A DNA stretch of 43,344 nucleotides, from the NCBI GenBank assembly GCA_035488355.1, contig DATHLI010000251.1, positions 1-43,344 on the forward strand, in the 5' to 3' direction. Positions 4,349 to 41,249 of the stretch are shown here, piece by piece (positions within the stretch are counted from its first letter, which is position 1; each line of letters starts with the position of its first letter). Source of the stretch: a bacterium (GTDB taxonomy: Bacteria > Sysuimicrobiota > Sysuimicrobiia > Sysuimicrobiales > Segetimicrobiaceae). The position numbers and the translations under genes were made by a program. The notes beneath the pieces were generated by a model that had not been told where the DNA came from, made no database searches, and was given only the letters and a program-made list of their open reading frames with translations.

Positions 4349-5839
4349 GTGACGGTCGAGGTGCTGCGCCTGGGGGGGATCTCCAAGCGCTTCGGCGGCG
4401 TCCAGGCATTGCGCGATGTGGACTTCGCGGTGCAGCAGAGTTCGGTGCACTGCCTGATCGGCGAGAACGGATCGGGGAAGTCCACGCTGATCAAGATCGC
4501 GACCGGCGTGTTCGCGCCGGACGCCGGCACGATCGACATCGCCGGCCGCACCCACGAGATGCTCACGCCGCTGCAGGCGATCCGGTACGGCGTCGAGGTG
4601 ATCCACCAGGATCTCTCCCTGTTCCCGAACCTGACCGCGGCCGAGAATATCGCGATCGCCCCGTATCTCGCGCAGGGCCGGCGGCTGTTCCGGCACCGGC
4701 ACGCTCGGGAGATCGCGGACGGGGTCATCCGCCAGATCGGCATCGCGCTCGACCTCGATGCCGCCGTCGAAGACCTCTCGGTGGCGGACAGGCAACTCAC
4801 CGCGATCTGCCGTGCCCTTGCCCAGGACGCGCGGATCATGTTCATGGACGAGCCCACGGCCGCCCTGACGTGGCGGGAGGTGGAGGCGCTGTTTGCGGCG
4901 GTGCGGCGGCTGACGGCGCGCGGCGTCGCGGTTGTCTTCATCAGCCACAAGCTCGACGAAGTCCTCACGATCGCCGATGACATCACCGTGCTCCGGAACG
5001 GGATGCTGGTGGCGAACGGACCTGCGCGCGACTTCGACCGGGCCGCGCTGATCCGGGCGATGACCGGCCGCGAGATCGTGGACCGCCGCGGCGAGTGGAC
5101 GGTGCCGCCGGACGCGCCGGCCGTGCTCGAGGTCCGGGCGCTGACCGCGCCCCGAGCGTTCGCCGAGGTGTCGTTCACCGTCCGGAAGGGGGAGATCGTG
5201 GGGCTGGCCGGCCTGCTGGGATCCGGCACCATGGACGTCGTCGAGGCGTTGTTTGGGATCGTGCGGACGGCCGGGGGCCAGATCATCGTCGGGGGCAGGG
5301 CGCGGAGGATCCGGCTGCCGACGGATGCGATCGCCGCCGGCATCGGCTACGTGCCGAACGATCGCCTCACCCAGGGGCTGTTCCTCCGGCACCCCATCAG
5401 TTGGAACATTATCGCAGCGCGCGTCGATGCGGTGACCACCCGGTGGGGCTTCATCCGCTGGGGGGCGGTCGCCGCCAACGCGCAGCGCATGATGAACGAG
5501 CTGCACATCGTGTCCGCCTCCCCGGCGACCGTGGTGGGGCATCTCTCGGGCGGAAACCAGCAGCGCGTCGTGCTCGCCAAGTGGCTGTGGACGCAGCCGG
5601 CGCTCCTGCTGCTGAACGGGCCGACGGTGGGGGTGGACGTTGGATCGAAGGAGGAGATCTACCGTCTCCTCCGGAGCCTCAGCGAGCGCGGCACCGCGGC
5701 CGTCGTCGCGTCGGACGACGTCCCCGAGCTGGTGGCCATCTGCCATCGCGTCCTGGTGATGCGCCGCGGGCGCATCGTCACGGAGTTCTCGGGGGCGCGG
5801 GTGACGGAAGATGCCATCTTGCGTGAGCTGCACGCATGA
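4349..5839 (+). CDS. Sugar ABC transporter ATP-binding protein with two fused NBDs (RbsA/LsrA type)
   Basis: 496 aa with GTG start. Walker A GENGSGKST, Walker B IMFMDEPT, and a second-half signature LSGGNQQR. Confidence 0.9.
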   Translation: MTVEVLRLGGISKRFGGVQALRDVDFAVQQSSVHCLIGENGSGKSTLIKIATGVFAPDAGTIDIAGRTHEMLTPLQAIRYGVEVIHQDLSLFPNLTAAENIAIAPYLAQGRRLFRHRHAREIADGVIRQIGIALDLDAAVEDLSVADRQLTAICRALAQDARIMFMDEPTAALTWREVEALFAAVRRLTARGVAVVFISHKLDEVLTIADDITVLRNGMLVANGPARDFDRAALIRAMTGREIVDRRGEWTVPPDAPAVLEVRALTAPRAFAEVSFTVRKGEIVGLAGLLGSGTMDVVEALFGIVRTAGGQIIVGGRARRIRLPTDAIAAGIGYVPNDRLTQGLFLRHPISWNIIAARVDAVTTRWGFIRWGAVAANAQRMMNELHIVSASPATVVGHLSGGNQQRVVLAKWLWTQPALLLLNGPTVGVDVGSKEEIYRLLRSLSERGTAAVVASDDVPELVAICHRVLVMRRGRIVTEFSGARVTEDAILRELHA

Positions 5840-6873
5840 GCGGGCCCGCGCGCGTCCTGCGCGCCGCGTCGCGCCTCCGGGGCCGCAACAACGAAGGGTT
5901 CGTGGCCGCGACGATGGCCCTGGTGGTGGTGCTGGTGGGCGGCATCGACAGCCGGTTCTGGAGCCTCGCCACCGTCTTCAACGTCCTGCACGACTCGTTC
6001 GAGCCGCTCGTGTTTTCCCTCGGCTTCCTCATGGTGCTGCTGACCGGCGGGATCGACGTCTCGTTCGACGCGATCGGCATCTTCGCAGGCTACACCCTCT
6101 CCCTGTCGGCCGGGCGTCCCTGGCTCGCCAGCCACGTGCTCCCGGCGTTTGTCGCGGCGGCGGCCATCGGGCTCGGGCTGGGCGTCGTCAACGCGGCGGC
6201 GACCGCCATTCTGCGCCTTCCCGTGCTGATCGTTACGCTGGGGACGCGGGGGATCATTGCGGGAGTCCTCCTCTCCGCCGTCGGATCGACGTACGTGTCC
6301 GTCCTTCCGGGCGCGCTCGGCGCATTCCCGGGCCGGGACCTCATCCGGGTTCAGGCGGGCGGCGGCCAGTCGGTCGGCCTGCACGTGCTGGTCATCCCGC
6401 TCGTCCTGCTGTGTCTGGGGCTGGCGTTCTTCCTCCGGCAGACGGTCCTGGGGCGCGGCATTTACGCCGTGGGCGGCGACCTCGAGGCGGCGCGCCGGGT
6501 GGGGTTCCCGGTGCGCTGGATCCAGGGGTTCGTGCTCTGCCTTGCGGGCACGTTTGCGGGGCTTGCCGGGATGATCCACGTGTCGCTGATCGGCTACGGG
6601 AATCCCTTTGACCTGGTGGGGTTGGAGCTGAACGTGATCGCCGCGGTCGTGCTGGGTGGCGCGTCGATCTTCGGCGGGAGAGGATCCGTCGTCGGAACGA
6701 TCCTGGGCGTGCTCTTCGTCTCGCTCATCAACTACTCGTTGATCCTGCTGGGCATCCCGAGCACGTGGCAGCAGGTCGCCATCGGCATCCTCCTGGTGTT
6801 GGGGATCCTGGCGCAGACCGTCAGCCGGCGCCGCGCCAGGAGCTTCCTGGCCACCGGCGGGGCGAGCGCATGA
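5836..6873 (+). CDS. Sugar ABC transporter permease (RbsC/LsrC type)
   Basis: 345 aa, multi-pass hydrophobic. ATGA overlap with the ATPase gene at 5836-5839. Confidence 0.88.
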   Translation: MSGPARVLRAASRLRGRNNEGFVAATMALVVVLVGGIDSRFWSLATVFNVLHDSFEPLVFSLGFLMVLLTGGIDVSFDAIGIFAGYTLSLSAGRPWLASHVLPAFVAAAAIGLGLGVVNAAATAILRLPVLIVTLGTRGIIAGVLLSAVGSTYVSVLPGALGAFPGRDLIRVQAGGGQSVGLHVLVIPLVLLCLGLAFFLRQTVLGRGIYAVGGDLEAARRVGFPVRWIQGFVLCLAGTFAGLAGMIHVSLIGYGNPFDLVGLELNVIAAVVLGGASIFGGRGSVVGTILGVLFVSLINYSLILLGIPSTWQQVAIGILLVLGILAQTVSRRRARSFLATGGASA

Positions 6874-7919
6874 TGGCCGGATTCGGGCGCCTGAGCGGGT
6901 GGATGCGGGGCGAGCGCAGCCCACGGCAGCTCTTCATCGCGGCCGCGGCGGTGTTCCTCGTCTTCTCCGCCGCCTCGTCGCGCACGTTCCCGTCGGTCGC
7001 AAATTTACAATCGATGGGATTCCAGTTCCCCGAGATGGGACTCCTCGGCCTCGGCGTGATGCTCTCCATGGTGACGGGCGGCATCGATCTGTCGATGGTG
7101 GCGATCGCCGACCTGGCGGGTTTGACGGCCGCCGAGTTCTTCCACCCCATGGGCGGGGGGGCTCCGCCCGCCGGATCGTGGAGTCAGGTCGTCGTGGGGG
7201 GAACCGTCGCGCTGGCCGTCGGCGCCGGGTGCGGCGCCGTGAACGGCCTGTTGATCGGCGGGCTGCGCATCCCGCCCATTCTCGCGACGCTCGCGACCTC
7301 GGAGCTCTTCGGCGGCCTGGCGATCGCGTGGACGGGCGGACAGGCCATCGTCGGGCTGCCCCAGCGATTCCTCGAGATCGGAAATGCCAGCCCGGCCGGG
7401 GTGCCGGTCCCCGTCGTCTTGTTCGCGGCGGCCGCCGCGGCGACCGCCGTGCTGCTCAACTGGCGCAGGCTGGGGCTCCTGATGACTCTGGTCGGCGCCA
7501 ACCCGGTGGCCGCTCAGTTCTCCGGGATCCGGGCGCTCAGCGTGCTGGTCGGCACTTACGTCGCGAGCGGGCTCCTGGCGGCCCTGGCCGGGGTGATCAT
7601 CATCGCGCGCACCGCGAGCGCGACCCCCGACTACGGCCAATCGTACATCCTCCTGTCGGTCGTGATCGCGGTGCTCGCCGGCGTGGACCCCAACGGCGGG
7701 TTCGGAACCGTCACCGGCGTTGTGCTCGCGACCCTCTGTCTGGTGATGATCCAGGCCGGGTTCATCGGTCTGGGGTTCAGCCAGTTCCTGTACGAGATCG
7801 CGCAGGGCGGCATCCTTATTGCGGTGCTGTCGTTCCAGGCGGCGCGCCAAGGAAGACGACAAGAGCCGCAGCGCCGGCGGGGGCCCGCGCCGGCGCCGCC
7901 GCGGAGCGAGGCGGTGTGA
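6870..7919 (+). CDS. Sugar ABC transporter permease (RbsC/LsrD type)
   Basis: Start moved to the ATG at 6870 (MMAGFGRLSG...), which forms an ATGA overlap with the previous stop. The tracked ORF from 6765 would overlap the first permease. 349 aa, multi-pass hydrophobic. Confidence 0.85.
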   Translation: MMAGFGRLSGWMRGERSPRQLFIAAAAVFLVFSAASSRTFPSVANLQSMGFQFPEMGLLGLGVMLSMVTGGIDLSMVAIADLAGLTAAEFFHPMGGGAPPAGSWSQVVVGGTVALAVGAGCGAVNGLLIGGLRIPPILATLATSELFGGLAIAWTGGQAIVGLPQRFLEIGNASPAGVPVPVVLFAAAAAATAVLLNWRRLGLLMTLVGANPVAAQFSGIRALSVLVGTYVASGLLAALAGVIIIARTASATPDYGQSYILLSVVIAVLAGVDPNGGFGTVTGVVLATLCLVMIQAGFIGLGFSQFLYEIAQGGILIAVLSFQAARQGRRQEPQRRRGPAPAPPRSEAV

Positions 7920-9376
7920 TGTTCCTGGGCGTGGACATCGGAACGTCGAGCAGCAAAGCCGTGCTCGTCTCGGGGTCGGGGAAGGTCGTCGCGAGCGCAA
8001 CCCGGAGTCACGGGGTCTCCACGCCGAAACCTGAATGGTTCGAGCACGACGCGGATGCGACATGGTGGGGCGAAGCCTGCGCGCTGATCCGGGAGCTCGG
8101 GGGGACCGCGGGCGTTTCCGCGATCACGGCGGTCGGCGTGAGCGCCATCGGCCCGGCCCTCCTCGTCTCCGACGCCGCCGGCCGGCCCCTGCGGCCGGCA
8201 ATCCTCTACGGGATCGACACGCGGGCAACGGCGGAGATCGACGAGCTGACGGCACGCTTCGGAGAAGCGACGCTGATGGACGTGGCAGGCAACCGCCTGA
8301 CGAGCCAGGCGGTGGGTCCCAAACTGGCGTGGATTCGCCGGCACGAGCCGGAGACGTGGGGGAAGACCCGGCGGTGGTTTCTGGCGTCGGGCTATCTGGT
8401 GTTCCGGCTCACGGGCGAGTACGTCGCCGACCACTATTCCGCGAGCGCCAGCAGTCCGTTGTACGACCTTCGGGCCCGGACGTGGTGGGATGAAGCCTGG
8501 CATGAAATCGCCCCCGCAGTGCGGCCTCCACGCCTCGCCTGGCCCGGCGAGGTGGTCGGGCGCGTCACCCCGGGAGCGGCCGCGGACACGGGACTCCCGG
8601 AGGGGACGCCGGTGATCGCCGGCACGATTGATGCCCTGGCCGAAGCCTACAGCGCGGGATGCCGCCAGGTAGGCGACACGATGGTGATGTACGGCTCGAC
8701 GCTGTTTTTGATCCAGACCGTTGCCGCCCCGGCTCCTCATCCGGGACTGTGGGCGGCCACCGGGCGCACGCCGGCGACCTATTCGGTGGCCGCCGGAATG
8801 GCGACCTCGGGGTTGATTACGACCTGGTTTGCCGACCTGGTGCAATCCGGTGTGCCCGCGCTGGTCGAGGCGGCCGGGCGCATCCCGCCCGGCAGCGAAG
8901 GTCTCGTGCTCCTTCCGTATTTCGCCGGGGAGCGCACGCCGCTCTTCGATCCCCAGGCGCGCGGCTGCTGGATGGGGCTGACCCTGCGTCACACCCGGGC
9001 GCACCTCTACCGATCGATCCTGGAGGGGGTGGCCTACGGGGCCCGCCACAACCTCGAGACGATGACCGAGGCCGGGGGGCGCCCCCGGCGCCTGTTCGCC
9101 GTCGGCGGCGGCACTCGAGGCTCGCTGTGGACCCAGATCATCAGCGACGTCACGCGGCTCCGTCAGTTTGTCCCGACCATTACGGTCGGCGCGTCCTACG
9201 GGGACGCACAGATGGCTGCGGATGCGGCCGGGGTCGAGACCGGATCATGGAATCCGGTTGCGCACGTCATCGAGCCCGACGGCTCGAACGGCGCCCTCTA
9301 CGACCGCCTGTACGGCATCTACCGCCGGGCGTATCCCGCCTTGCGCGATGACCTGCACACGCTCGGAGCGTCGTAG
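7919..9376 (+). CDS. FGGY-family carbohydrate kinase (xylulokinase/LsrK-like)
   Basis: 485 aa from the ATG at 7919 (TGATG junction with the permease stop). N-terminus MFLGVDIGTSSSKAVL and later GGGTRGSLWTQI are FGGY kinase hallmarks. The tracked ORF start at 6899 is an out-of-gene extension. Confidence 0.88.
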   Translation: MFLGVDIGTSSSKAVLVSGSGKVVASATRSHGVSTPKPEWFEHDADATWWGEACALIRELGGTAGVSAITAVGVSAIGPALLVSDAAGRPLRPAILYGIDTRATAEIDELTARFGEATLMDVAGNRLTSQAVGPKLAWIRRHEPETWGKTRRWFLASGYLVFRLTGEYVADHYSASASSPLYDLRARTWWDEAWHEIAPAVRPPRLAWPGEVVGRVTPGAAADTGLPEGTPVIAGTIDALAEAYSAGCRQVGDTMVMYGSTLFLIQTVAAPAPHPGLWAATGRTPATYSVAAGMATSGLITTWFADLVQSGVPALVEAAGRIPPGSEGLVLLPYFAGERTPLFDPQARGCWMGLTLRHTRAHLYRSILEGVAYGARHNLETMTEAGGRPRRLFAVGGGTRGSLWTQIISDVTRLRQFVPTITVGASYGDAQMAADAAGVETGSWNPVAHVIEPDGSNGALYDRLYGIYRRAYPALRDDLHTLGAS

Positions 9377-10260: not shown

Positions 10261-11328
10261 TTGGAGAGACGCTGGAAGCAGCTGGGCGACCTGCTGGTGA
10301 ATTATTCCGCCGGGATCCGGCCGGACGAGAAGGTCATGATCGCCATGGGAGAGGTGGAATCTTTCCCGCTCGTGCAGGCGGTGTACGAGGCCGCCGTGAG
10401 GGCGGGCGCATATCCCCAGGTGCAATTTCTCTCGGAGAAGCTGCGCCGCGCCCTGCTGAAGTTTGGCAGCGAGCGCCAGCTGGCCTGGGTGCCCGAGATC
10501 GAGGCGTATGGGATGGAGTGGGCGGACGTCTACATCGGGCTGCGCGGCGGCTATAACCTCGCCGAGCACTGGGACATCCCGTCCCCCCGGTTGTCGGTGA
10601 ACCAGGCGGCCATGGGGCGGATCTCGGCGTTGCGTTGGGAGAAGACGCGTTGGTGTCTGGTCCGCGTGCCCAATGCGGCATTCGCGCAGCAGGCCAACGT
10701 CGACGAAGACACGGTCACGGAAATGTTCTTTGACGCCTGCCTGCTGGATTGGGAAAGCGAAACGCGGACGTGGCGCGACTGGGCCGGGCGGTTGAACCGG
10801 GCCGACCGCGTCCGCGTCGTCGGACGGGATACCGATCTCAGTTTCTCGGTGCGGGGGCGTGCGTGGGTCGTCGGTGACGGGCGTATCAACATGCCGGATG
10901 GAGAGATCGCCACGGCGCCGGTCGAGAGCACCGTCGACGGGCATATCTACTTCGAGTTCCCCGGCGTTCTGAGCGGACGCCTGGTGCACGACATCCGCCT
11001 GCGCTGGACCCAGGGGACACTGGTGGAAGCCACCGCCTCCCAGAACCAGGATTTCCTTCGCGCGATTCTCAACACCGACCCGGGCGCCAGCATGATCGGG
11101 GAGTTCGGCTTCGGCACCAATCCGCACGTGAATCTCTTCTGCAAGGACATTCTCATCGACGAGAAGATCGGCGGCACCGTCCATACGGCGTTGGGCCGGG
11201 GGTACCCGGAAAGCGGGGGAACAAACCGGTCGGCCATCCACTGGGACATCATCAAGGATTTGCGGGCGGAAGGCACCGTGTATGTGGATGGCCAGGCGGT
11301 GCTGGAAAAGGGCCGGTTCCTCTTCTAG
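10261..11328 (+). CDS. M29-family aminopeptidase (AmpS/PepS/aminopeptidase T-like)
   Basis: 355 aa. TTG start 7 nt after GAGGAGGGG. NMPDGEIATAP, GEFGFGTNP and IHWDII are M29-like stretches. Confidence 0.8.
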   Translation: MERRWKQLGDLLVNYSAGIRPDEKVMIAMGEVESFPLVQAVYEAAVRAGAYPQVQFLSEKLRRALLKFGSERQLAWVPEIEAYGMEWADVYIGLRGGYNLAEHWDIPSPRLSVNQAAMGRISALRWEKTRWCLVRVPNAAFAQQANVDEDTVTEMFFDACLLDWESETRTWRDWAGRLNRADRVRVVGRDTDLSFSVRGRAWVVGDGRINMPDGEIATAPVESTVDGHIYFEFPGVLSGRLVHDIRLRWTQGTLVEATASQNQDFLRAILNTDPGASMIGEFGFGTNPHVNLFCKDILIDEKIGGTVHTALGRGYPESGGTNRSAIHWDIIKDLRAEGTVYVDGQAVLEKGRFLF

Positions 11329-11356
11329 CCTCCCCGAGGAGATCAGACCAGCGAAC

Positions 11357-11617
11357 TCATCTCCGAGACCGAGAGAGAGACTCCGAAAGTCGTGAGGCTT
11401 CCGTAAACGCCGCGACCCAGACTTGCCGGACAAGCGCGCGCTGGATTTTCTCTTGGGTGTCGTCGGGGAACCAAATCTGCTTGTAGGGCAAGATGTCGTT
11501 GCGATCCAACCCAAATGAATCCCACAAGGCCGTGATGGTTTCCGCGACCGTCGCGCCGGGGTGGTCGCGCAGATAGGATTCGCAGCCGGCAACGGCATGC
11601 TGCAGCTTGGTGGGCAC
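11357..11617 (-). CDS. Hypothetical small protein (86 aa)
   Basis: GTG start preceded by GAGGAG at 7-nt spacing. The composition is protein-like, unlike the overlapping Arg-rich 118-aa frame. I recognise no family. It sits in a lower-GC spacer. Confidence 0.45.
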   Translation of the reverse strand: MPTKLQHAVAGCESYLRDHPGATVAETITALWDSFGLDRNDILPYKQIWFPDDTQEKIQRALVRQVWVAAFTEASRLSESLSRSRR

Positions 11618-11739
11618 GGACCTGCTCCTCGTTGGCGTGTTGGATTTGTGAGACTGGAGTGAAATTCGAGGTGAGGTCCGCCTTCCTGCCGAACAGCAAC
11701 GAATTTCTCTTGTTCGTTCGGTAGTTTACTCAGGGATGC

Positions 11740-11769
11740 GAGCGGGGGCTCCACAACGTGCCCCCGCTC
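11740..11769 (-). terminator. GC-rich hairpin just downstream of the orphan binding-protein gene
   Basis: Perfect 10-bp inverted repeat gagcgggggc (11740-11749) / gcccccgctc (11760-11769) with a 10-nt loop, 17 nt past the stop at 11787. No clear U-tract follows. Confidence 0.4.
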
Positions 11770-11786
11770 CGCCGCCTCACCCAGAT

Positions 11787-13091
11787 CTACTTGTACTGAC
11801 TGAGGATTGCCGTTGCATCTCGCTGGGCTTGGTTCAACGCCGCTTTAACGGTGAGACGGCCCGTCTGCGCGGCTTGAACTGCTGTCACAAGGAGCAAGCC
11901 GACCCGATCCACCTCGTGGATCGTCATCTGCTCCCCCGCGTATTGCAGCTGCTCTGTCGCCGTCAACGCTTGAGGCGCTACCTTGAGGTAATCGCTAAAG
12001 GCGGGCAGTGACAATTCGCTTTTGCGGATGGGCACGTACCCGGTGCCGATGGTCCAGCGCGCTGCGGTCGCCGGTTCGGTCATCCAGCGAATGAATGTCC
12101 ATGCGGATTTTTGGTGCTCCGGTGGAATCTTCTTGAAGATATAGAAGCTCCCGCCGCCCGTGGGAGCGCCGTACCGCTTATCTCCGGGCATGAACGCCGC
12201 CCCCCACTGGAAGGTCGCGTTCTTCCGGATAAATGTCATTGCGCCGGTGGACAAATAGATCATCGCCACCTTCTGCTGAATGAAGTCCTGGCTCGTTTGG
12301 TCCCAGAAGGCCTCGCTCGATGCCCCCGGAGGATGCACCTTGTATTTGTTCTGCAAATCGAGGATGAACTGGACCGCTCGCTCGGCCTGCGGAGAGTTGA
12401 ACTTCACCCACTTGCCGTCCGGGTCGGCCAGGTCCCCACCCGCTTGAATGATGAACCCCTGGATGATCCACGGCGAGGTGTCCACTACGGGAATCTGGAC
12501 GCCCCACTGCGTCACCTGCCCATTCTGATCCCGCACCGTCAGCTTCTGGGCGTCGGCGACGAGTTCCGTCCAGTTCTTGGGGGGCTGGTTCGGATCCAGC
12601 CCGGCCTTCTGAAAGAGATCTTTGTTGTAGTAGAAGATCGGCGTGCTGCGCTGCCAGGGAATACTCCAAATGTGGCCGTTCGCGCGTGCGTTCAATAGGA
12701 AGGCGCCGTAGAAATCGTCCAGCCAGGCCTTGCCGCCGCTTTGAGCGATCATGTCGTCCAGGGGAATGATGGCGTCCCGGTCAAGGAGCGAGAAGAGCTC
12801 GGGCGTGTCCAGCACCGCCACGTCGGGCGGGTTGCCGCCCATAACGCCCGTCATCGCCTTGGCCATGGCCTCAACGTAGTTTCCGGCGAACACCGGCTCG
12901 ACCTTAATATCTGGGTGGGTGGTATTGAAGTCGTTCACCATCTCGGTCATGAGCTTGTTCAGTGGCCCGGAGACACCCACCGGGTAATAGTACTTTAGCT
13001 GCACCGCTCCCTGAGCATTGATAGCGGCCGGCAGCGCGGCGACAACCAAGGCTACTGCCACTGCGCAAGCCATCGTCCGAGTCGAAAGCAT
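11787..13091 (-). CDS. Family-1 extracellular solute-binding protein (CUT1 sugar type), orphan paralog
   Basis: 434 aa. GGGAGGG Shine-Dalgarno, signal-like N-terminus, YYYPVGVSGPLNKLMT. Collinear with and about three-quarters identical by eye to the binding protein at 35464-36804. No adjacent permeases. Confidence 0.88.
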   Translation of the reverse strand: MLSTRTMACAVAVALVVAALPAAINAQGAVQLKYYYPVGVSGPLNKLMTEMVNDFNTTHPDIKVEPVFAGNYVEAMAKAMTGVMGGNPPDVAVLDTPELFSLLDRDAIIPLDDMIAQSGGKAWLDDFYGAFLLNARANGHIWSIPWQRSTPIFYYNKDLFQKAGLDPNQPPKNWTELVADAQKLTVRDQNGQVTQWGVQIPVVDTSPWIIQGFIIQAGGDLADPDGKWVKFNSPQAERAVQFILDLQNKYKVHPPGASSEAFWDQTSQDFIQQKVAMIYLSTGAMTFIRKNATFQWGAAFMPGDKRYGAPTGGGSFYIFKKIPPEHQKSAWTFIRWMTEPATAARWTIGTGYVPIRKSELSLPAFSDYLKVAPQALTATEQLQYAGEQMTIHEVDRVGLLLVTAVQAAQTGRLTVKAALNQAQRDATAILSQYK

Positions 13092-13174: not shown

Positions 13175-13212
13175 GCGCCGGTCCTCAGTTGCCTCGACGA
13201 GCGGGGAAGATA
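13175..13212. repeat. Short direct repeat R2, copy a (3' end of a ParE/RelE-like gene plus trailer)
   Basis: The 35-nt core 13178-13212 recurs at 13787-13821 with 2 substitutions. On the minus strand it reads IFPARRGN-stop. Confidence 0.85.
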
Positions 13213-13301
13213 GCCAAAACGATGATCGTATCGTCCGCGAAGACGTAACTAATGCAGTAGGGCTCGACCCAAGAAGAAGCGAAGCCGGCGTACGGTTCGC
13301 G
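13185..13301 (-). pseudogene. RelE/ParE-like toxin, C-terminal fragment only
   Basis: The last ~38 codons (REPYAGFASSWVEPYCISYVFADDTIIVLAIFPARRGN) resemble a ParE/RelE C-terminus. There is no start codon or N-terminal half, and the upstream part of the frame overlaps the antitoxin gene. Confidence 0.35.
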
Positions 13302-13386
13302 CCGCCGCGATCCATCTCTGCAAACTCGGCGATCATCTCGGCATGCTACTATGTAGATGCAAGTCACTACAATAGGAGCGATCACC

Positions 13387-13653
13387 GTGAAGCTTGGGCT
13401 CCGAGAGGCCAACCAGCAGTTCTCGAAGGCGATGCGGGCCATTCGTGATGGCGAGGAGGTCATCCTGACCGATCGCGGCCGTCCCTTCGCCATCATCGCC
13501 CCGCTGCGACCAGAGACGGCCCTCGACCGGTTTGCGCGCGCGGGCCTGATCCGGCCGGCGGCGAAGACTGACACGCTCCCTCCGGCACACCCTGTCTCGG
13601 CGCGAGGACGTCCCGCAGGACAAATTATCAGTGACCAGCGGGACGAGCGATGA
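13387..13653 (+). CDS. Phd/YefM-type (VapB-like) antitoxin
   Basis: KLGLREANQQFSKAMRAIRDGEEVILTDRGRPFAIIAP is a typical Phd/YefM N-domain. GTG at 13387 follows AGGAG (13374-13378). The tracked ORF starts at ATG 13357 without a Shine-Dalgarno. The stop overlaps a downstream ATG (ATGA 13650-13653). Confidence 0.7.
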   Translation: MKLGLREANQQFSKAMRAIRDGEEVILTDRGRPFAIIAPLRPETALDRFARAGLIRPAAKTDTLPPAHPVSARGRPAGQIISDQRDER

Positions 13654-13684
13654 TCGGATTGTCCTGGGCCTACATTGAAACGAG

Positions 13685-13778
13685 CATTTCTCGTGACCAT
13701 GCGATGAAACCGAACACGCTCGACCTGGTGGGCGAGGCAGGGGTCGAACCCGCGACCTCCTCGGCGTAAGCGAGGCGC
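13685..13778 (-). repeat. Direct repeat R1, left copy: 5'-truncated tRNA-Val fragment (13726-13778) plus 41-nt tRNA trailer
   Basis: 94 nt identical to 31416-31509 except for one mismatch (13765 c vs 31496 t). Covers tRNA positions 24-76 including CCA. The 5' part of the tRNA is absent. Confidence 0.9.
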
Positions 13779-15809: not shown

Positions 15810-16565
15810 ATGGCAGCCATGAAGATCCTGGTCGCGGGTGAATCCTGGATGACGGCGGCGACGCACTTTAAGGGATGGGATTTCTTCTCCAGCACGACAT
15901 TTCACACCGGGATCGACCATTTGCGCCGCGCGCTGGAAGGGCAGGCGATCGAGGTCGTTCACATGCCGTCACACGAAGCCGCGACGGCGTTTCCCCTTCG
16001 ACTCGCCGAGCTCCAAGCCTACAATGCCATCATCTTGAGCGACATTGGATCAAACACCCTGCTGCTTCATCCAGACACCTGGCTTCATGGGAAGACGATG
16101 CCGAATCGATTGAAGCTCCTGGCCGAATACGTCACCCAGGGCGGCGGCCTGGCCATGGCGGGGGGATATTACAGTTTCCAAGGGGTCTACGGCGCCGCCC
16201 GATATCATGGCACGGCGGTCGAGGAGGTGTTGCCGGTAGAGATCTCCCCGAACGACGATCGCGTTGAAGTCCCTGAAGGGTTCACACCTCGCGTGGTCGC
16301 GCCCACCCACCCCGTCACGCAGGGCATCCCTCGAGAGTGGCCGGCGCTGCTCGGATATAATGCGGTCCGGATCAAGCCTGAGGCGACGGTCCTGGCACTC
16401 GTTGGCGAGCATCCCATTCTCGCGGTGAGAACCGTCGGGGCCGGACGCACGCTGGCTTGGACATCTGATATCGGCCCGCATTGGTGCCCCGAGCCGTTTC
16501 TCACATGGCCGGGATACGCGCGACTCTGGGGACAAGCCATTCGATGGCTCGCCCGTCAAGCCTGA
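15810..16565 (+). CDS. GATase1-like domain protein (putative glutamine amidotransferase-like, DUF-type)
   Basis: 251 aa with GAGGGGGGA upstream. MKILVAGESW...ILSDIGSNTLLL...WTSDIGPHW matches my recollection of the GATase1-like cytoplasmic protein family found next to sugar genes. Confidence 0.55.
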   Translation: MAAMKILVAGESWMTAATHFKGWDFFSSTTFHTGIDHLRRALEGQAIEVVHMPSHEAATAFPLRLAELQAYNAIILSDIGSNTLLLHPDTWLHGKTMPNRLKLLAEYVTQGGGLAMAGGYYSFQGVYGAARYHGTAVEEVLPVEISPNDDRVEVPEGFTPRVVAPTHPVTQGIPREWPALLGYNAVRIKPEATVLALVGEHPILAVRTVGAGRTLAWTSDIGPHWCPEPFLTWPGYARLWGQAIRWLARQA

Positions 16566-25249: not shown

Positions 25250-26185
25250 CTAGCCTTTCAGCCCGGACATGACCACACCTTTGATGTAATAGCGCTGCAG
25301 AAGCAAAAAGAGAATGATCACGGGGACCGACGCCAGCACCGATCCCGCGAAGATACGGCCCCAGTAGACCTGGGTCTGCGTGGTCTGCTGGGCGATGGCC
25401 ACCTGGATCGTCTGCAGGTCCTTCCGGCCCACGGCAATCAGCGGCCAGTAGAAGAGGTTCCAAATGAACTGAAACTCGAGCAAGGCGGTCGTGATGAGCC
25501 CCGGGAGAGCGTTCGGCACGATGACATGGCGCAGGATCCCGAGGTGCGAGGCCCCATCCATGGTCGCGGCCTCGTCCAGCTCCCGGGGAATCTCCTTGAA
25601 GAACTGGATGAGCGCAAAAATGACGAACGGGCTCGCATACCATGGGAGGACCAGCGCCCAATAGGTATCCTGCAGGTGCAACGTCCGGACGACGATATAG
25701 AGCGGCACCATCACCGCCTCGAATGGAATCAGCAGGGTGGCGATCACAAAAAGGAGCACCAAATCCTTTCGCGGGAACTCCAGCCGCGCGAAAAAGTAGG
25801 CGCCCATGGTGTTGAAAATCAGCGAAGACACCACGACCCCGGCGGACACCAGGGCCGTGAAGCCCAGCGCGCGGCCAAAATCGAGCCCAAACGATCGGCC
25901 CTCCGGTGACAGCCCAAGGATATCCAGGAAATTCTTCACCGACCACACCACGGGCACAAACGTGTGCCAGGAGAGCGGATACGTGAACTGAAAGATCTCG
26001 GTTTCCAGGCGGAGACTTCCCAGGATCATCCAGGCGAACGGGACGATGTAGACGATGAGGAGGGCCACCCCCAGCGCATACTGGACTCCCCGGGCGGCCA
26101 CGTTCCGGGCCCGCCGGGGGACCGCCACCCGCCAGGGACGCAGCGGGAGGGGTTCTATGGCGAGGGAGGGGCGGTTCACCTGCAT
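25250..26185 (-). CDS. Carbohydrate ABC transporter permease (MalG/CUT1 type)
   Basis: 311 aa, multi-pass, EAA loop EAATMDGAS. Confidence 0.88.
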   Translation of the reverse strand: MQVNRPSLAIEPLPLRPWRVAVPRRARNVAARGVQYALGVALLIVYIVPFAWMILGSLRLETEIFQFTYPLSWHTFVPVVWSVKNFLDILGLSPEGRSFGLDFGRALGFTALVSAGVVVSSLIFNTMGAYFFARLEFPRKDLVLLFVIATLLIPFEAVMVPLYIVVRTLHLQDTYWALVLPWYASPFVIFALIQFFKEIPRELDEAATMDGASHLGILRHVIVPNALPGLITTALLEFQFIWNLFYWPLIAVGRKDLQTIQVAIAQQTTQTQVYWGRIFAGSVLASVPVIILFLLLQRYYIKGVVMSGLKG

Positions 26186-26218
26186 CGCTGCCGGCCCCGA
26201 GCCGCCTTCATGCGCCCC

Positions 26219-27142
26219 TCAATACTCCACTTCGGATCGCAACCAGCGCATCTGCGCGGTACTCACGCCGAGGAGCACGATGAGCGTAATCATCGAGAGC
26301 GCACTGGCGTAGCCCATATCCTGGAACAGAAATCCATTCTGGTAGATGTAATAGACGATCACTTTCGTCGAATCGAGCGGGCCCCCCTTGGTCATCGTGT
26401 AAACGGGAACGAACACCTGAAAGGAAAAAATCGTCTGGGTGACGACCACGAACATGAGCACCCGGCGGAGCAGAGGCAGCGTGATGCTCCGGAACTGTTG
26501 CCAACTGCTGGCCCCATCGATCCGGGCGGCCTCGTGAAACGTGTCGGGAATGCCCTTCAGCCCCGCCATCAGAACAATCAAGCTGAATCCGATCTCTTTC
26601 CACACCATCATGATGACAATGGCCACCAGAGCCACCCGGGCGTTCGACAAGAAGACGACGCGCGGCAATCCCGCGCTCGTCAAGATGCTGTTGAACAGGC
26701 CCAATTGCACGTGGTACATCAGCGACCAGATCACCGAGATCACCACGATCGACGTGACCACAGGCGCGAAGATTGCCGAACGCACGGCGGCGGAAAACCG
26801 GTCCTCCCGTTGGAGGAGAATCGCCAGGGCAAGCGACAGCACAATTTGCGCAGGGACTTTGAGGAGAACATATTGCACGGTGACGGTCAGAGACTTCCAA
26901 AAGACCGGGTCTTGGAGCAAACGACCATAGGCCTGCAGGCCGATAAATTTGCCATAGCCCCCCAGCAGGCTATACTGCCACAGGCTGGACCTGATCGCGG
27001 CCAGGATGGGGACGTACCGGAAGAGAAGAAAGTTCACAACAGCGGGGGCAACGAATAGGAACGCAATGAGATAGCTCCGTCGCCGCCTGGTCCACCATCC
27101 CCGCGGGGATGGATAGGCGGGGGCCACCACCGCGCTCGACAT
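26219..27142 (-). CDS. Carbohydrate ABC transporter permease (MalF/CUT1 type)
   Basis: 307 aa, multi-pass, EAA loop EAARIDGAS. Confidence 0.88.
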   Translation of the reverse strand: MSSAVVAPAYPSPRGWWTRRRRSYLIAFLFVAPAVVNFLLFRYVPILAAIRSSLWQYSLLGGYGKFIGLQAYGRLLQDPVFWKSLTVTVQYVLLKVPAQIVLSLALAILLQREDRFSAAVRSAIFAPVVTSIVVISVIWSLMYHVQLGLFNSILTSAGLPRVVFLSNARVALVAIVIMMVWKEIGFSLIVLMAGLKGIPDTFHEAARIDGASSWQQFRSITLPLLRRVLMFVVVTQTIFSFQVFVPVYTMTKGGPLDSTKVIVYYIYQNGFLFQDMGYASALSMITLIVLLGVSTAQMRWLRSEVEY

Positions 27143-28575: not shown

Positions 28576-28869
28576 CTTCCTTCCTCCTCTCGCGCCTTAA
28601 GTCTCGTTCATCCCATATGTGACTTCCGGGATTCCCTGCCACGAGATCGTGCACCTTCTGTCGGGGCGAGGATGCGCCGCTTCGCGGAGGACTCCGGGCT
28701 CCTGGGCACGCTTCGCCGGAGACGATGGGCCAGGACTTGCATAGCGCTCGACGAAGCTCATGCGATGGAGATCCATCCCGCACAAGAACCCGCACCCGAT
28801 TGGGATCTCTCGCAGGCGGGCCGGGCCGCGGTCCGGAACCAGGTGCGGGGGAGGGGGCCGGGAGGACGG

Positions 28870-29286
28870 ATGATGAACAAAATTGATCCGAATGTCGTGC
28901 CGACTCAAACGTTCGAGTGGGGAGCCATCAAATGGCTCGTGAGTGCCAGGAACATCGCCGGAGCGGGGCTCACGTTTGGGGAGGTCGTGCTCCTGCCGGG
29001 GAAGGGCCATGCCCGGCACAATCATCCCACGTCTGAAGAAGTTCTGTACGTCCTGTCGGGCCACGCCGTCCAGATGCTCAATGACGAAAAGCCGTTTTCG
29101 GTTGGGCCCGGCGATACCATCTATGTCCCGCGAGGCGTGTTTCATTCAACCGTGAACGTGGGGTGGGAGCCGATGCGACTGATCGCCCTCTATAATCCTC
29201 AGGGGGCAGAGAAGGCGCTGGAGGGGTTGCCCGACTTCGCCGAGGTTCCAGCCGGGAGGGCGCCCTCCTGGTCCCGAGCCCTGTAG
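28870..29286 (+). CDS. Cupin-domain protein
   Basis: 138 aa from the ATG at 28870 after GGAGGA. Both cupin motifs are present: HARHNHPTSEEVLYVLSG and GDTIYVPRGVFHS. The tracked ORF start at 27322 lies antisense to the binding-protein gene and is rejected. Confidence 0.82.
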   Translation: MMNKIDPNVVPTQTFEWGAIKWLVSARNIAGAGLTFGEVVLLPGKGHARHNHPTSEEVLYVLSGHAVQMLNDEKPFSVGPGDTIYVPRGVFHSTVNVGWEPMRLIALYNPQGAEKALEGLPDFAEVPAGRAPSWSRAL

Positions 29287-38862: not shown

Positions 38863-38936
38863 GGGCCTGTAGCTCAAGGGTAGAGCACCCGGCTCATAAC
38901 CGGCTGATCCAGGTTCGAGACCTGGCGGGCCCACCA
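38863..38936 (+). tRNA. tRNA with CAT anticodon (elongator Met or lysidine-dependent Ile2), CCA encoded
   Basis: Hand-folded 74-nt cloverleaf. Acceptor GGGCCTG/CGGGCCC (one U-G pair), D arm GCTC-AAGGGTA-GAGC, anticodon loop CTCATAA, T arm CCAGG-TTCGAGA-CCTGG. G1-C72 is paired, so it is not an initiator. Confidence 0.85.
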
Positions 38937-39023
38937 AGGCAAGCGTTTCCCTACAGACTCCTCCGGGTCGCTCCTTTCGATCTGCATCCGACCAACGCGC
39001 GTGTTACGACGCAGAGGCGCCGG

Positions 39024-40076
39024 TTAGGGAGGACCGGGCGTTGTGGCAGGCGGAGGAGGTGCGATCACAGGACGCCGCCCTGGCTGCGGCGTCGGTTGTT
39101 GCTGCATGTGGATATGAGGCTGGGGGCTGCTCTTGATGAAGGCCTTGCCGAGGTGGTTTTCGATAATCTTGAGAGCGGGGGTTGAGTTGAAGCTGTGTGC
39201 TGTGGCATGGAACACCGAAAGGACCGCGTCCTGGAGCGCCTGATCGGCCTCCAGATCGTCCACCACCAGCCCGAATCCCTTGGCCGAGGTCCGGTCGATG
39301 AAGCGAGAGTGACTCTTGAAGTTCGCATGATCGGCCAGCCTCGCCGCGATCTGCAACGCGGAATCGTGTCTCACCGGTGATGCGGGCAGCATGTATCGCT
39401 CCAGCCAGGTGGCGACGAGGGACTCCGACAATTCGCGAGCGAGCTTGCATTGAATAATGAGCGCCGGCCCGTACTGGCGCAGAATCGGGAGCCACGCGCC
39501 CAGAAGCGCGGGATTCTGGCATTCCTGCTTCGCGAGGGCAAACTGCTCCTCGATGGCATGAGCGGCAACCGCGAAACGCCCCAAGTCGCCCTGCACGAAG
39601 AATTGAGGGTCGATCGGGCCGAGAAAAGAATGGCTGCCCATGACAATACGGTTGGCAGAGCATGCGAACATCGTTGCCGCAGACAACGCGGCATGCGGGA
39701 CAAAGACCCGCACCTCGTTGAACTTGGACCGGATGTACGAGACGAGAGATTCCGCGGCTTCAGCCGATCCGCCCGGCAGATGCATGACCATATCAAGGGG
39801 AGCGTCACCAAGGCCGTGCATGACCTCCATGAACCCTTGAACGTCTTCGGCGGTGATGCTGATGAGCTCGGGTTCGGTGCCGGGCGTCCATTGGGTCCAC
39901 TTCGAGGCATAGAGAATCACGTTGCGCCCGGTCTGCTGGTGAAGAGCCGTCAGATATTTCCGTCTGACGATATCGAAAGGGGATGCCGTGGGGGGGAATT
40001 GTCCGGTCTGGACTCCTTGCGCGACTTGCTGGGACGTCTGTTGTAGTTCGACGAGAATATCGCCCCACGTAGGCAG
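39024..40076 (-). CDS. SDH-family Clp-fold (S49/ClpP-like) serine proteinase, probable non-canonical CTG start
   Basis: HLPGGSAEAAESL and the nucleophile region LSAATMFACSANRIVMG fit the ClpP/SppA fold. The tracked ORF starts at GTG 39920, but the frame stays open 61 codons further upstream. That stretch encodes family-like N-terminal sequence (PTWGDILVELQQ...FDIVRRKYLTALHQQTGRNVILYASKW). CTG at 40076 follows a G-run. Pro-rich C-terminal tail. Confidence 0.7.
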   Translation of the reverse strand: MPTWGDILVELQQTSQQVAQGVQTGQFPPTASPFDIVRRKYLTALHQQTGRNVILYASKWTQWTPGTEPELISITAEDVQGFMEVMHGLGDAPLDMVMHLPGGSAEAAESLVSYIRSKFNEVRVFVPHAALSAATMFACSANRIVMGSHSFLGPIDPQFFVQGDLGRFAVAAHAIEEQFALAKQECQNPALLGAWLPILRQYGPALIIQCKLARELSESLVATWLERYMLPASPVRHDSALQIAARLADHANFKSHSRFIDRTSAKGFGLVVDDLEADQALQDAVLSVFHATAHSFNSTPALKIIENHLGKAFIKSSPQPHIHMQQQPTPQPGRRPVIAPPPPATTPGPP

Positions 40077-40103
40077 CGGGGAGCCCCCCTGCTTCGGAGA
40101 CCC

Positions 40104-40307
40104 TTAGGAAGAGCGCTCCGTCGTGTAGAACGTGGGTCGAGGCTTCAACCCGGTGAGATACGCCTCCGCCTGACGAATCGCCGCCTCATAGGTACCGTAG
40201 ACTTGAATAACGTCCAGCGCTCCAGGGTTCAACGCGGCCATCGCCTGTTCCAAAGCCTGGAGCTCGGCTTCGACCTGGTTCTTCACATCTTCGCGGCGGT
40301 CAGACAC
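40104..40307 (-). CDS. Hypothetical small helical protein (67 aa), upstream partner of the protease
   Basis: GTG start after AGGAGGGAGG. Predicted helical/coiled N-terminus (VKNQVEAELQALEQAMAAL). Same reading frame as the protease, separated from it by one TAA. Confidence 0.55.
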   Translation of the reverse strand: MSDRREDVKNQVEAELQALEQAMAALNPGALDVIQVYGTYEAAIRQAEAYLTGLKPRPTFYTTERSS

Positions 40308-40347
40308 AGCCTCCCTCCTGCATTCGGGAAACCCGCGTCACACCATG

Positions 40348-40356
40348 ATAATACCA
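40348..40356 (-). promoter_or_regulatory. Putative extended -10 promoter for the small-protein/protease pair
   Basis: The minus strand reads TG-g-TATTAT (reverse complement of 40348-40356), about 40 nt upstream of the GTG at 40307, in a locally AT-rich patch. Confidence 0.35.
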
Positions 40357-40493
40357 CACGGTGCTGGAGAAGTTCGCGGCGGCGGCGACGATGCGGGAGA
40401 AGACTTTCCGCCACGCCCCCCGGGAGACGACCCCGTCCTGGACCACCCAGGCTTCCCCTGAGCCGCCCTCTTCCCTTCGACCCCCCCGCGGAT

Positions 40494-41249
40494 TCAGGGC
40501 GCATAGTCCACGCGCACCAGGTACAGCCCGTGCGCGGGGAGGTTGGGACCGGTTCGGCGATTATCGGGGTCGCTCAGGAAGGCGGCGGGGGCCTCCGCGG
40601 GCAGACGGCCCGTCCCCACCCGTACCAGCGTGCCCACTAAGATACGCACCATGTGCCGGAGGAACCAGTCCGCGGTGACCGTCACACGGACGCGCGCGCC
40701 GGTCCGCCGGCACTCGGCGCGGGTGATGGTGCAGAGGGTCGTGCGGGTCTGGGTCCCGGCGCCCCGGTAGGCCGCAAAGTCGTGCCGGCCGAGGAACGGG
40801 GTGAGCGACCGCTGCATCGCATCCATATCCAGCGGGTCCGGAACATGGTATGCCCGGAAGCGGAGCAGCGCGGACGGAGCGGGACGATTCAGGATCTCGT
40901 AGCGGTAGGTCCGCGAGACGGCGTCGAACCTGGCGTGAAACCCGGCGGGCGCCTCCTCGGCTTCGAGGACCCGGATGTCCGCGGGAAGATGCGCGTTCAG
41001 GGCTCCGGGAAACCGGCCGGCCGCAATCCGGCTGCCGGTCACAAGGTGCGCGACCTGCCCGAGCGCGTGCACGCCCGCGTCGGTCCGGCCGGCTCCCACC
41101 ACCGCCACCGGTTCGCCCGTGACCGCGCGGACCGCCGCCTCGATCGTGGCCTGCACGGAGGGAGCGCCGGCCGCCGCGGACCCCCGCTGCCGCTGCCACC
41201 CGCAGTACCCCGTCCCATCGTATTCGAGCACCAGCCTGAGGGTCCGCAC
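40494..41249 (-). CDS. truA: tRNA pseudouridine(38-40) synthase
   Basis: 251 aa. LEYDGTGYCGWQRQ and catalytic-Asp motif GAGRTDAGVHA. Confidence 0.92.
   Translation of the reverse strand: MRTLRLVLEYDGTGYCGWQRQRGSAAAGAPSVQATIEAAVRAVTGEPVAVVGAGRTDAGVHALGQVAHLVTGSRIAAGRFPGALNAHLPADIRVLEAEEAPAGFHARFDAVSRTYRYEILNRPAPSALLRFRAYHVPDPLDMDAMQRSLTPFLGRHDFAAYRGAGTQTRTTLCTITRAECRRTGARVRVTVTADWFLRHMVRILVGTLVRVGTGRLPAEAPAAFLSDPDNRRTGPNLPAHGLYLVRVDYAP

Follow-up and report, generated by a model that had tools for sequence, protein, structure and literature searches.

What is the pair of genes lodged between the tRNA-Met(CAT) gene and truA in contig DATHLI010000251.1 (assembly GCA_035488355.1), from a bacterium of the Segetimicrobiaceae? 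The stretch analysed, here called the window, covers positions 1 to 43,344 of this contig. Two minus-strand genes fill the interval, an open reading frame (ORF) of 67 amino acids (aa) and a gene for a serine protease of the SDH/ClpP fold. An earlier note, made from the letters alone, had described both genes 3' of the tRNA and had suspected a toxin-like or anti-phage module at a tRNA hotspot. Its description of the genes stands, apart from the start of the protease gene, and what lies here is a copy of a two-gene cassette that is widespread and horizontally mobile. With moderate confidence, this cassette can be viewed as toxin-antitoxin-like or as an abortive-infection module; its toxin or anti-phage function is what we infer. 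The earlier note knew of no described system with this composition, and none has emerged. PADLOC-DB v2.0 contains no family matching either protein at E ≤ 1, and a literature search, with subscription journals outside its coverage, gave no description of a pair of protease and small partner.

The small partner gene and its pairing with the protease

Used alone in a word-indexed protein search, the 67-aa ORF retrieved two proteins, itself and one relative. Each homolog locus inspected, however, showed an ORF of 60-70 aa shortly 5' of the protease gene. A hidden Markov model (HMM) was built from four of these ORFs, iterated twice and run on the six-frame ORFs of the protease homolog loci (~1.2 Mb). 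In 67 of 86 homolog loci the four-sequence HMM matched an ORF that immediately precedes the protease gene on its strand. After iteration this number rose to 85, across bacteria, archaea and phages, and no match was found elsewhere in these loci. In the one remaining locus, L073, the protease is preceded by an ORF of the same layout. The two genes are adjacent and co-directional, with a gap of mostly 1-30 nucleotides (nt). No third gene is conserved with them, other gene clusters each occurring in at most four of 82 loci within 6 kb on either side. The small ORF is thus the conserved partner that the earlier note had suspected.

Across the family the partner is 52-78 aa long, with the consensus EYEELEKLAEAQPGIAELMRVYGQYEEALRQSEAYLAATKPKPVISTSDSS and the core motif PG[IV]x[DE][LV][ML]xVYGxY; conservation at key positions reaches 96% for Gly, 93% for Tyr and 85% for Pro. 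The last 12 residues are 43% Ser/Thr, versus 9% elsewhere, and the protein usually ends 1-3 residues past S-S. The window protein had been predicted as helical and without a family. The AlphaFold2 (AF2) model, of low confidence, places helices at residues 2-26, 30-36 and 39-51, followed by a disordered tail, and no match to a Pfam, PHROG, NCBIfam or PADLOC family was found. Its copies in databases are all named 'hypothetical protein' and carry no Pfam domain.

Both genes are under purifying selection. Compared with the nearest relative, locus L001, the small gene has a ratio of non-synonymous to synonymous substitution rates (dN/dS) of 0.24, and the protease one of 0.07-0.12. The partner evolves faster, with a mean pairwise identity of 26% versus 58% for the protease, and the pairwise identities of the two proteins are correlated (Mantel r = 0.80, a value as high in none of 999 permutations). 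The two genes are inherited together. Collectively, the pair is an autonomous, obligate and mobile two-gene cassette.

At 50% identity, the protease sequences form 761 clusters at E ≤ 1e-30 and 3,315 at E ≤ 1e-10. A peptide-pattern scan of 185,579 GTDB species genomes gave at least 324 loci, which is a lower bound. Homolog loci cover many bacterial phyla, and about one quarter are archaeal, from Methanosarcinales, Methanomicrobiales, Halobacteria, Thermoplasmata, Nitrosotenuis (Thaumarchaeota) and the Heimdall- and Sigyn-archaea (Asgard). Archaeal and bacterial copies are 50-68% identical, which implies transfer. If the protease were a common housekeeping enzyme, either a signal-peptide peptidase of the SppA/S49 kind or a quality-control peptidase, and its small neighbour there by chance, this would account for the Pfam assignment to SDH_protease, an S49-related family, and for the names periplasmic serine protease or ClpP borne by some records. 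Such an enzyme is nevertheless very improbable here, given the rare and patchy distribution, the transfer between domains, the lack of a signal peptide or membrane anchor and an NCBIfam equivalog score of 68 against 250. Moreover, the protease is absent beside truA in 80 other organisms and its partner gene is obligatory.

The cassette also travels with mobile elements, although only seven of 50,697 phage records carry the protease. Temperate phages have it at accessory positions. In Gordonia phage BeeGee it is flanked by the tail/lysis genes and by the integrase, a Shewanella Mu-like phage has it behind the late regulator C, and Porphyromonas gingivalis phages have it beside HicAB. In a Klebsiella pneumoniae lambdoid prophage it occupies the nin region (proteins WP_032426283.1 and WP_008807825.1), between a DnaB-like helicase and RusA/Q, and in a 44-kb element of Pseudomonas aeruginosa it directly follows the integrase. 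The Klebsiella copy has no DNA-level match in 5,426 Escherichia coli genomes. In BeeGee, between genes 30 and 31, an unannotated ORF of 59 aa (MANPASHLEQ...HVRYSTSATR; L091:4823-5002) stands directly 5' of gp31; its layout is partner-like, helical and then Ser/Thr-rich at the end, and it is too divergent for the partner HMM.

These copies bring up an alternative in which the cassette serves the mobile element. The protease would be an accessory enzyme of phages and prophages that degrades host proteins (for example immunity proteins or repressors), either as counter-defence or to switch lysogeny. Its specificity adaptor or timer would be the small protein, and the window copy would be a remnant of such an element. 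Membership of the protease in the phage family phrog_11747 (E = 4e-83) speaks for such a role, as do copies in bona fide phage genomes and in early or accessory regions of prophages, and giant-virus SDH proteases as the nearest viral folds. The scarcity among phage records argues the other way, and many loci, among them the window, L096 and numerous archaeal ones, have no phage genes close by. A cassette that persists by itself in a core part of the chromosome, under purifying selection, better fits a host-beneficial or selfish addiction module. Service to the element is therefore a minority possibility, though one to be kept in mind.

For a toxin-antitoxin-like or abortive-infection module, the company kept by the cassette is of direct relevance. 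The earlier note had envisaged defence islands, and this view is upheld in part. One locus has a type I restriction-modification (RM) system upstream and a transposase downstream of the cassette; one is a prophage with AAA_21/15, HipA and HIRAN genes; one has a resolvase, HEPN_AbiU2 and a DnaB/AAA_25 helicase as neighbours. Other loci have plain chromosomal surroundings. In a sample of neighbours (124 ORFs within 5 kb on either side and 139 nearest neighbours), two or three type IIG RM enzymes, two or three DUF1156 methylases, two integrases and two AAA_15/21 ATPases were found, the remainder being mostly housekeeping genes. As a sign of a conflict role, the sampled neighbourhoods are suggestive, not decisive.

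Start codon, fold and active site of the protease

Where does the protease gene begin? The mechanical ORF, 39920..39024, starts with GTG and gives a product of 298 aa, as in public gene calls (P0001), and the earlier note relied on it. This product lacks the invariant N-terminal residues D35, R38 and R39. Homologs have 330-360 aa and an N-terminus MPTWG[DE]IL, which aligns with LPTWGDIL in the window and puts the codon CTG 40076-40074 at the initiator site. From the TAA of the small ORF to the GTG at 39920, the reading frame is free of ATG, GTG and TTG. The protease gene probably encodes 350 aa from the CTG, not 298 aa, in which case the earlier model was 52 codons too short at its 5' end and overlooked the CTG start.

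Several observations bear on this correction. The CTG start is identical in four independent soil-metagenome contigs. The nearest relative (L001/L002; 78% nt and 82% aa identity) likewise has CTG at the start, and in L001 a GGGAG precedes its CTG (870-872) at a spacing equivalent to that of AGGGGGG in the window. Codons 2-52, the 51 codons outside the 298-aa model, show a dN/dS of 0.12 at dS ~1.4 between the two CTG-bearing lineages; because of this constraint, the 51 N-terminal codons appear to be translated.

The window is not an isolated case. At the aligned M1 position in 82 non-redundant loci, the codons are ATG (50), GTG (17), TTG (8), ATT (3), CTG (2) and ATA (1). Counting the window, near-cognate starts (CTG, ATT or ATA) occur in seven of 83 non-redundant loci (the window, L001, L017, L029, L032, L052 and L057), with P ~2e-7 against a background of 0.5%. 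None of these seven loci has a canonical in-frame start upstream, and the nearest canonical one lies 10-54 codons downstream. As a result, gene callers shorten the proteins, as in P0001 (298 aa) and in P0002, called from an internal TTG.

In model bacteria, translation starts very poorly from CTG. This fact, and the 298-aa product without D35, R38 and R39 in both the ORF list and the public calls, would suit an inactive remnant, in which ATG was lost to CTG and the gene in the source genome yields the truncated product from GTG 39920 or nothing. Such decay is improbable for the window copy. The constraint on codons 2-52 opposes it, as do the Shine-Dalgarno-like element 7 nt 5' of the CTG in the window and in L001, an intact frame with all invariant residues, the identical sequence in four metagenomes and the independent recurrence of near-cognate starts across the family. 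Among other family members, the proteobacterial metagenome-assembled genome (MAG) locus L012:10001-10953 has a copy whose similarity to homologs fades near the C-terminus (…DDLEPIKSSKMRSFQYST…), consistent with a frameshift or a decaying copy.

The TAA of the small ORF (40106-40104) is in frame with the protease, nine codons 5' of the CTG, so that the two genes read as one ORF broken by a single stop. Stop-codon read-through to a fusion protein was considered and rejected: no homolog spans both parts (coverage at most 82% of the read-through product), the frames differ in L001, and the gap is in frame in 37 of 85 loci, near chance. Since the genes of L001 differ in frame and gap lengths vary among loci, the in-frame TAA is coincidental.

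The assignment to the SDH family, proposed in the earlier note, is confirmed by Pfam PF01972 SDH_protease (55.7 bits, E = 5e-15, gathering score 31.3), with a match restricted to profile positions 90-159 of 286, that is the oxyanion PGGS motif and the nucleophile-Ser region. Coverage is far wider in phrog_11747 (E = 4.3e-83; residues 32-315 of the protein, profile positions 2-286 of 290). The NCBIfam equivalog NF047768 Clp_like_SDH gives 68.3 bits, far below its cut-off of 250, which makes the protease a member of a divergent subfamily. NCBI names the homolog P0114 'SDH family Clp fold serine proteinase'.

The AF2 model, computed with 112 homologs, has a mean predicted local distance difference test score (pLDDT) of 93.4 and a predicted TM-score of 0.88. 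Residues 4-49 form a helical hairpin at the N-terminus, residues 52-171 the ClpP-like alpha/beta core, residues 172-298 a helical domain and residues 301-316 a beta-hairpin, beyond which comes a disordered Pro-rich tail. This tail, noticed earlier together with an intact nucleophile region (LSAATMFACSANRIVMG), is indeed present; its last 30 residues have a pLDDT of 68-73 and no secondary structure, and similar low-complexity tails occur in homologs. Two relatives, L058 (a Kofleriaceae MAG) and P0138, have an extra C-terminal domain of ~150 aa (…LDAGWLDGSGPAYS…PTPDGEIRAEW…) missing from the rest of the family. The protease is a soluble enzyme, of ~340 aa in the family, and signal peptides and membrane segments are absent from both it and its partner, in sequence and in model. 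Foldseek relates the protease with a probability of 1.0 to 1510-N and many ClpP chains, at query-normalized TM-scores of 0.2-0.36. The closest solved structures are 1510-N, an NfeD stomatin-specific protease, and ClpP; among viral models, giant-virus 'serine dehydrogenase proteinases' come closest.

Ser132, His149, Ser150 and Asp156 are invariant in the 112 homologs, and the window copy keeps every invariant residue. In profile alignment Ser132 corresponds to the nucleophile Ser of the AASAG motif in 1510-N. Both the alpha/beta core of clan SK (ClpP/crotonase fold) and a Ser at its conserved nucleophile position are found here. The general base in this clan is Lys in S49/NfeD enzymes and His-Asp in S14 enzymes. 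No invariant Lys occurs within ~170 residues after Ser132. As no invariant Lys matches the S49 dyad, a ClpP-like Ser-His arrangement can be proposed, in which His149 would act as general base for the predicted nucleophile Ser132.

The cassette in its locus

Upstream of the cassette, the gene order is that of a core region (secY...rpoA-rplQ-ecfA-ecfA-ecfT-truA), with truA at 40494-41249 on the minus strand. On the other side the tRNA-Met(CAT) gene, scoring 63.3 bits with its Rfam family, is the sole Rfam match of the locus; no Rfam family was found in the 87-nt spacer. The features of the locus are compiled in Table 1.

Table 1. Coordinates of the cassette and of its immediate surroundings in the window
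Feature	Position	Strand	Remarks	Basis
tRNA-Met, anticodon CAT	38863..38936	+	Convergent with the protease gene; context, outside the cassette	ARAGORN, Rfam
Spacer of 87 nt, from the protease stop codon to the tRNA 3' end	38937..39023	-	Inside the near-identity block common with contig L090	
SDH/ClpP-fold serine protease, corrected model	39024..40076	-	350 codons plus TAA, from the probable CTG start	Pfam, PHROG, homolog alignment, AF2
Probable near-cognate start codon CTG	40074..40076	-	At the position of the initiator Met in homologs	Alignment
Shine-Dalgarno-like AGGGGGG	40084..40090	-	7 nt 5' of CTG	Read from sequence
Codon of Ser132, predicted nucleophile (AALSAAT)	39681..39683	-	Invariant in 112 homologs	Profile alignment with 1510-N
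Codon of His149, candidate general base (MGSHSFLGPIDPQ)	39630..39632	-	Invariant in 112 homologs	
Pro/Gln-rich C-terminal tail of the protease	39027..39128	-	Residues ~317-350, predicted disordered	AF2
Small partner gene, 67 aa	40104..40307	-	GTG start; motif NPGALDVIQVYGTY; Ser/Thr-rich tail PTFYTTERSS	Family profile
Shine-Dalgarno GGAGGGAGG of the small gene	40310..40318	-	2 nt 5' of GTG	Read from sequence
Extended -10-like TGgTATTAT	40348..40356	-	Candidate promoter of the bicistron	Consensus match only
Block of 99.9% identity common with contig L090	38925..40382	-	Other flanks to left and right; possible limits of a transferred unit	

The extended -10-like element, read in the earlier note, is exact in sequence and position. 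It is kept as TGgTATAAC in L001 and L002, 36 nt from the start codon in L001 versus 40 nt in the window. A generic sigma-70 scan that requires a -35 box reported no promoter at the cassette, and terminator and promoter scans of the locus stayed at chance level.

Lower G+C had been seen as a mark of foreign origin, and the composition supports this in relation to the neighbours only. The G+C content of 38937-40360 is 0.607, versus 0.66-0.73 in the flanking genes and a window mean of 0.664 (standard deviation 0.034). At third codon positions (GC3) the cassette has 0.71-0.72, versus 0.87-0.95 in truA, ecfT, ecfA and the ABC-transporter genes on the other side. Within the window as a whole, the region ranks 53rd lowest among 839 sliding windows and the GC3 of the protease fifth lowest of 34 genes (median 0.83). 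Its composition is thus off from that of its neighbours and moderate, not extreme, for the window. Four other window genes (13185-13700, 28597-29145, 15810-16565 and 6899-9376) have a GC3 of 0.64-0.72, equal to or below that of the cassette, and the stretches of lowest G+C (~11000-12100 and 25650-26400) encode ordinary ABC-transporter components (SBP_bac_8 and BPD_transp_1).

The notion of a tRNA hotspot is not supported. Neither mark of a tRNA-integrated genomic island is seen: no integrase ORF lies between tRNA-Met and truA or elsewhere in the window, and no att-like direct repeat of the tRNA 3' end is found at the far boundary or in the window. A tRNA within 300 nt of the cassette occurs in one of 60 other loci, and tRNA adjacency is not a family trait. 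The single case is a deltaproteobacterial MAG (L008:11215-11290), with a tRNA-Ala ~230 nt downstream of the protease, convergent like tRNA-Met in the window.

Is the cassette then native to this place? The protease is absent from flanks of up to 4 kb in 80 of 80 truA loci of other organisms, including the nearest relatives (71-75% TruA identity). In two nearest relatives, L100 and L101, synteny 3' of truA is not conserved. A distant relative, L103 (54% TruA identity), has truA, 58 nt and then tRNA-Met(CAT) at 4790-4865, with tRNA-Val(TAC) 1.7 kb past tRNA-Met at 6534-6609; the window contains both tRNA species, at 38863 and 31457. Contig L090, a soil-metagenome contig of 1,603 bp, contains the window block 40382..38925 (1.46 kb) at 99.9% identity, between flanks unrelated to the window on both sides. 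On the right the identity breaks off after 12 nt of the 3' end of tRNA-Met, and L090 has no tRNA according to ARAGORN. This block may represent the transferred unit or a second insertion context. Because of the 80 truA loci without protease, the GC3 offset and the block with other flanks in L090, the cassette would be, in the source genome, an accessory insertion between truA and tRNA-Met.

Proposed mode of action and known systems

How could such a pair work? In a toxin-antitoxin-like or abortive-infection module, the protease would be the effector. Its starts, a few to ~30 nt after the stop of the partner, are often weak (GTG and TTG) or near-cognate (CTG, ATT and ATA). Owing to a strong Shine-Dalgarno element and a probable translational coupling to poor protease initiation, the small protein would be made in excess. 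It would bind the protease and restrain it, most likely by its extended C-terminal tail lying in the active-site cleft as bait or pseudosubstrate, by analogy with 1510-N. Were the small protein lost, titrated or modified, for instance because an infecting phage stops host expression, the protease would be released and would then cleave cellular or phage targets. A partner in excess that restrains the protease and whose loss releases it is the logic of toxin-antitoxin and abortive-infection systems. More tentatively, and with less confidence than in the general reading, it can be proposed that the cassette founds a new protease-based family of abortive infection or defence in bacteria, archaea and temperate viruses, in which a tail-held ClpP-fold protease, kept sub-stoichiometric by weak-start coupling, is unleashed by phage interference with the small protein.

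Several points weigh against a toxin-antitoxin-like or abortive-infection role. Neither protein has a PADLOC family. The partner matches no helix-turn-helix or ribbon-helix-helix family and is without a recognizable DNA-binding fold, unlike most type II antitoxins; its AF2 model has a pLDDT of 62. No natural fusion of partner and protease was found, the N-terminal extensions of P0165 and P0265 being unrelated sequence. The role proposed for His149 is drawn by analogy with ClpP, and near-cognate starts could also signal decay of some copies. Defence genes are modest among the sampled neighbours, and many loci lie amid housekeeping genes. Finally, the cassette sequence was not found in the RNA runs of one of the studies.

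The tail of the partner also invites a different explanation, a pair of protease and substrate devoted to maturation. In such a pair the protease would release or trim the Ser/Thr-rich C-terminal peptide of a precursor, the small protein, to give a signalling peptide or a product akin to ribosomally synthesized and post-translationally modified peptides; the small protein could also be processed as stomatin is by the NfeD protease. The enrichment of Ser/Thr in the last 12 residues follows a conserved P-[KR]-x-hydrophobic stretch, some partners end in Cys, and the nearest solved structure, 1510-N, cleaves the C-terminal region of its operon partner. Yet the 6 kb on either side of the cassette have no conserved gene for a modification enzyme, an exporter or a receptor in 82 loci, both proteins are devoid of signal peptide and membrane segment, and the best-conserved part of the partner is its helical core, not its tail. 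Maturation is thus rather improbable, less so than decay of the gene and more so than service to a mobile element.

If the cassette is a conflict module, as preferred here, it would be a compact two-gene system with a protease effector and an unusually broad range, covering bacteria, archaea and phages. Representatives exist in cultured hosts, with the K. pneumoniae lambdoid prophage, the P. aeruginosa integrative element, BeeGee and the P. gingivalis phages. The partner constitutes a protein family without annotation in any database. The recurrent CTG, ATT and ATA starts would represent a natural throttling of expression that standard gene callers mis-annotate, which is relevant to annotation pipelines. 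Should the two genes merely form a processing pair, the benefit would be smaller and would consist of the corrected gene model and of two families newly defined as a pair.

The protease is not the NCBIfam SDH equivalog, half of an NfeD/stomatin pair, a prohead protease or a PADLOC component. With PF01972 (ClpP-like 'serine dehydrogenase proteinase', MEROPS S49-related) it shares a match above the gathering score. It differs from PF01972 and NF047768 by its own N-terminal helical hairpin, C-terminal helical domain and Pro-rich tail, and by an obligatory small partner missing from the family description. The match to phrog_11747 is full-length, whereas this PHROG has neither a functional annotation nor a record of the partner gene; in the phages concerned, upstream ORFs are more divergent than in other loci.

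The NfeD protease 1510-N (PH1510) is described, in the title of PDB entry 3VIV, as binding and cleaving the C-terminal tail of its operon partner, stomatin PH1511. Like the cassette, it associates a ClpP-fold Ser protease with an adjacent partner gene, and it is the closest solved structure by profile and by fold, although the match is weak (E = 6e-4, TM-score 0.22-0.35). In contrast to the NfeD-stomatin operon, the cassette has no membrane anchor, OB domain or SPFH/stomatin partner, and no invariant residue of its protease corresponds to the Lys of the Ser-Lys dyad; an invariant His149 is found instead.

With ClpP (S14) and the ClpP/S49-type prohead proteases of phages, the alpha/beta core is shared, together with weak HMM matches to head-maturation PHROGs (phrog_53, E = 3.8e-5) and NCBIfam families. 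In comparison with ClpP, the query-normalized TM-score is 0.26-0.36 and ~180 extra residues form helical domains. No ATPase partner, portal or capsid gene is conserved near the cassette in 82 loci, and phage copies occupy accessory positions, not the place of a head-maturation protease between portal and scaffold/capsid.

Type II toxin-antitoxin and two-gene abortive-infection systems offer an operational analogy. The cassette has no homology to a known toxin, antitoxin or PADLOC model, and no DNA-binding fold is recognizable in its partner. It shares with these systems a small upstream gene and a larger, better-conserved downstream gene in tight spacing, a faster-evolving partner, a patchy and mobile distribution with HicAB, HipA and RM neighbours, and the bicistronic co-inheritance seen in 85/86 loci (r = 0.80).

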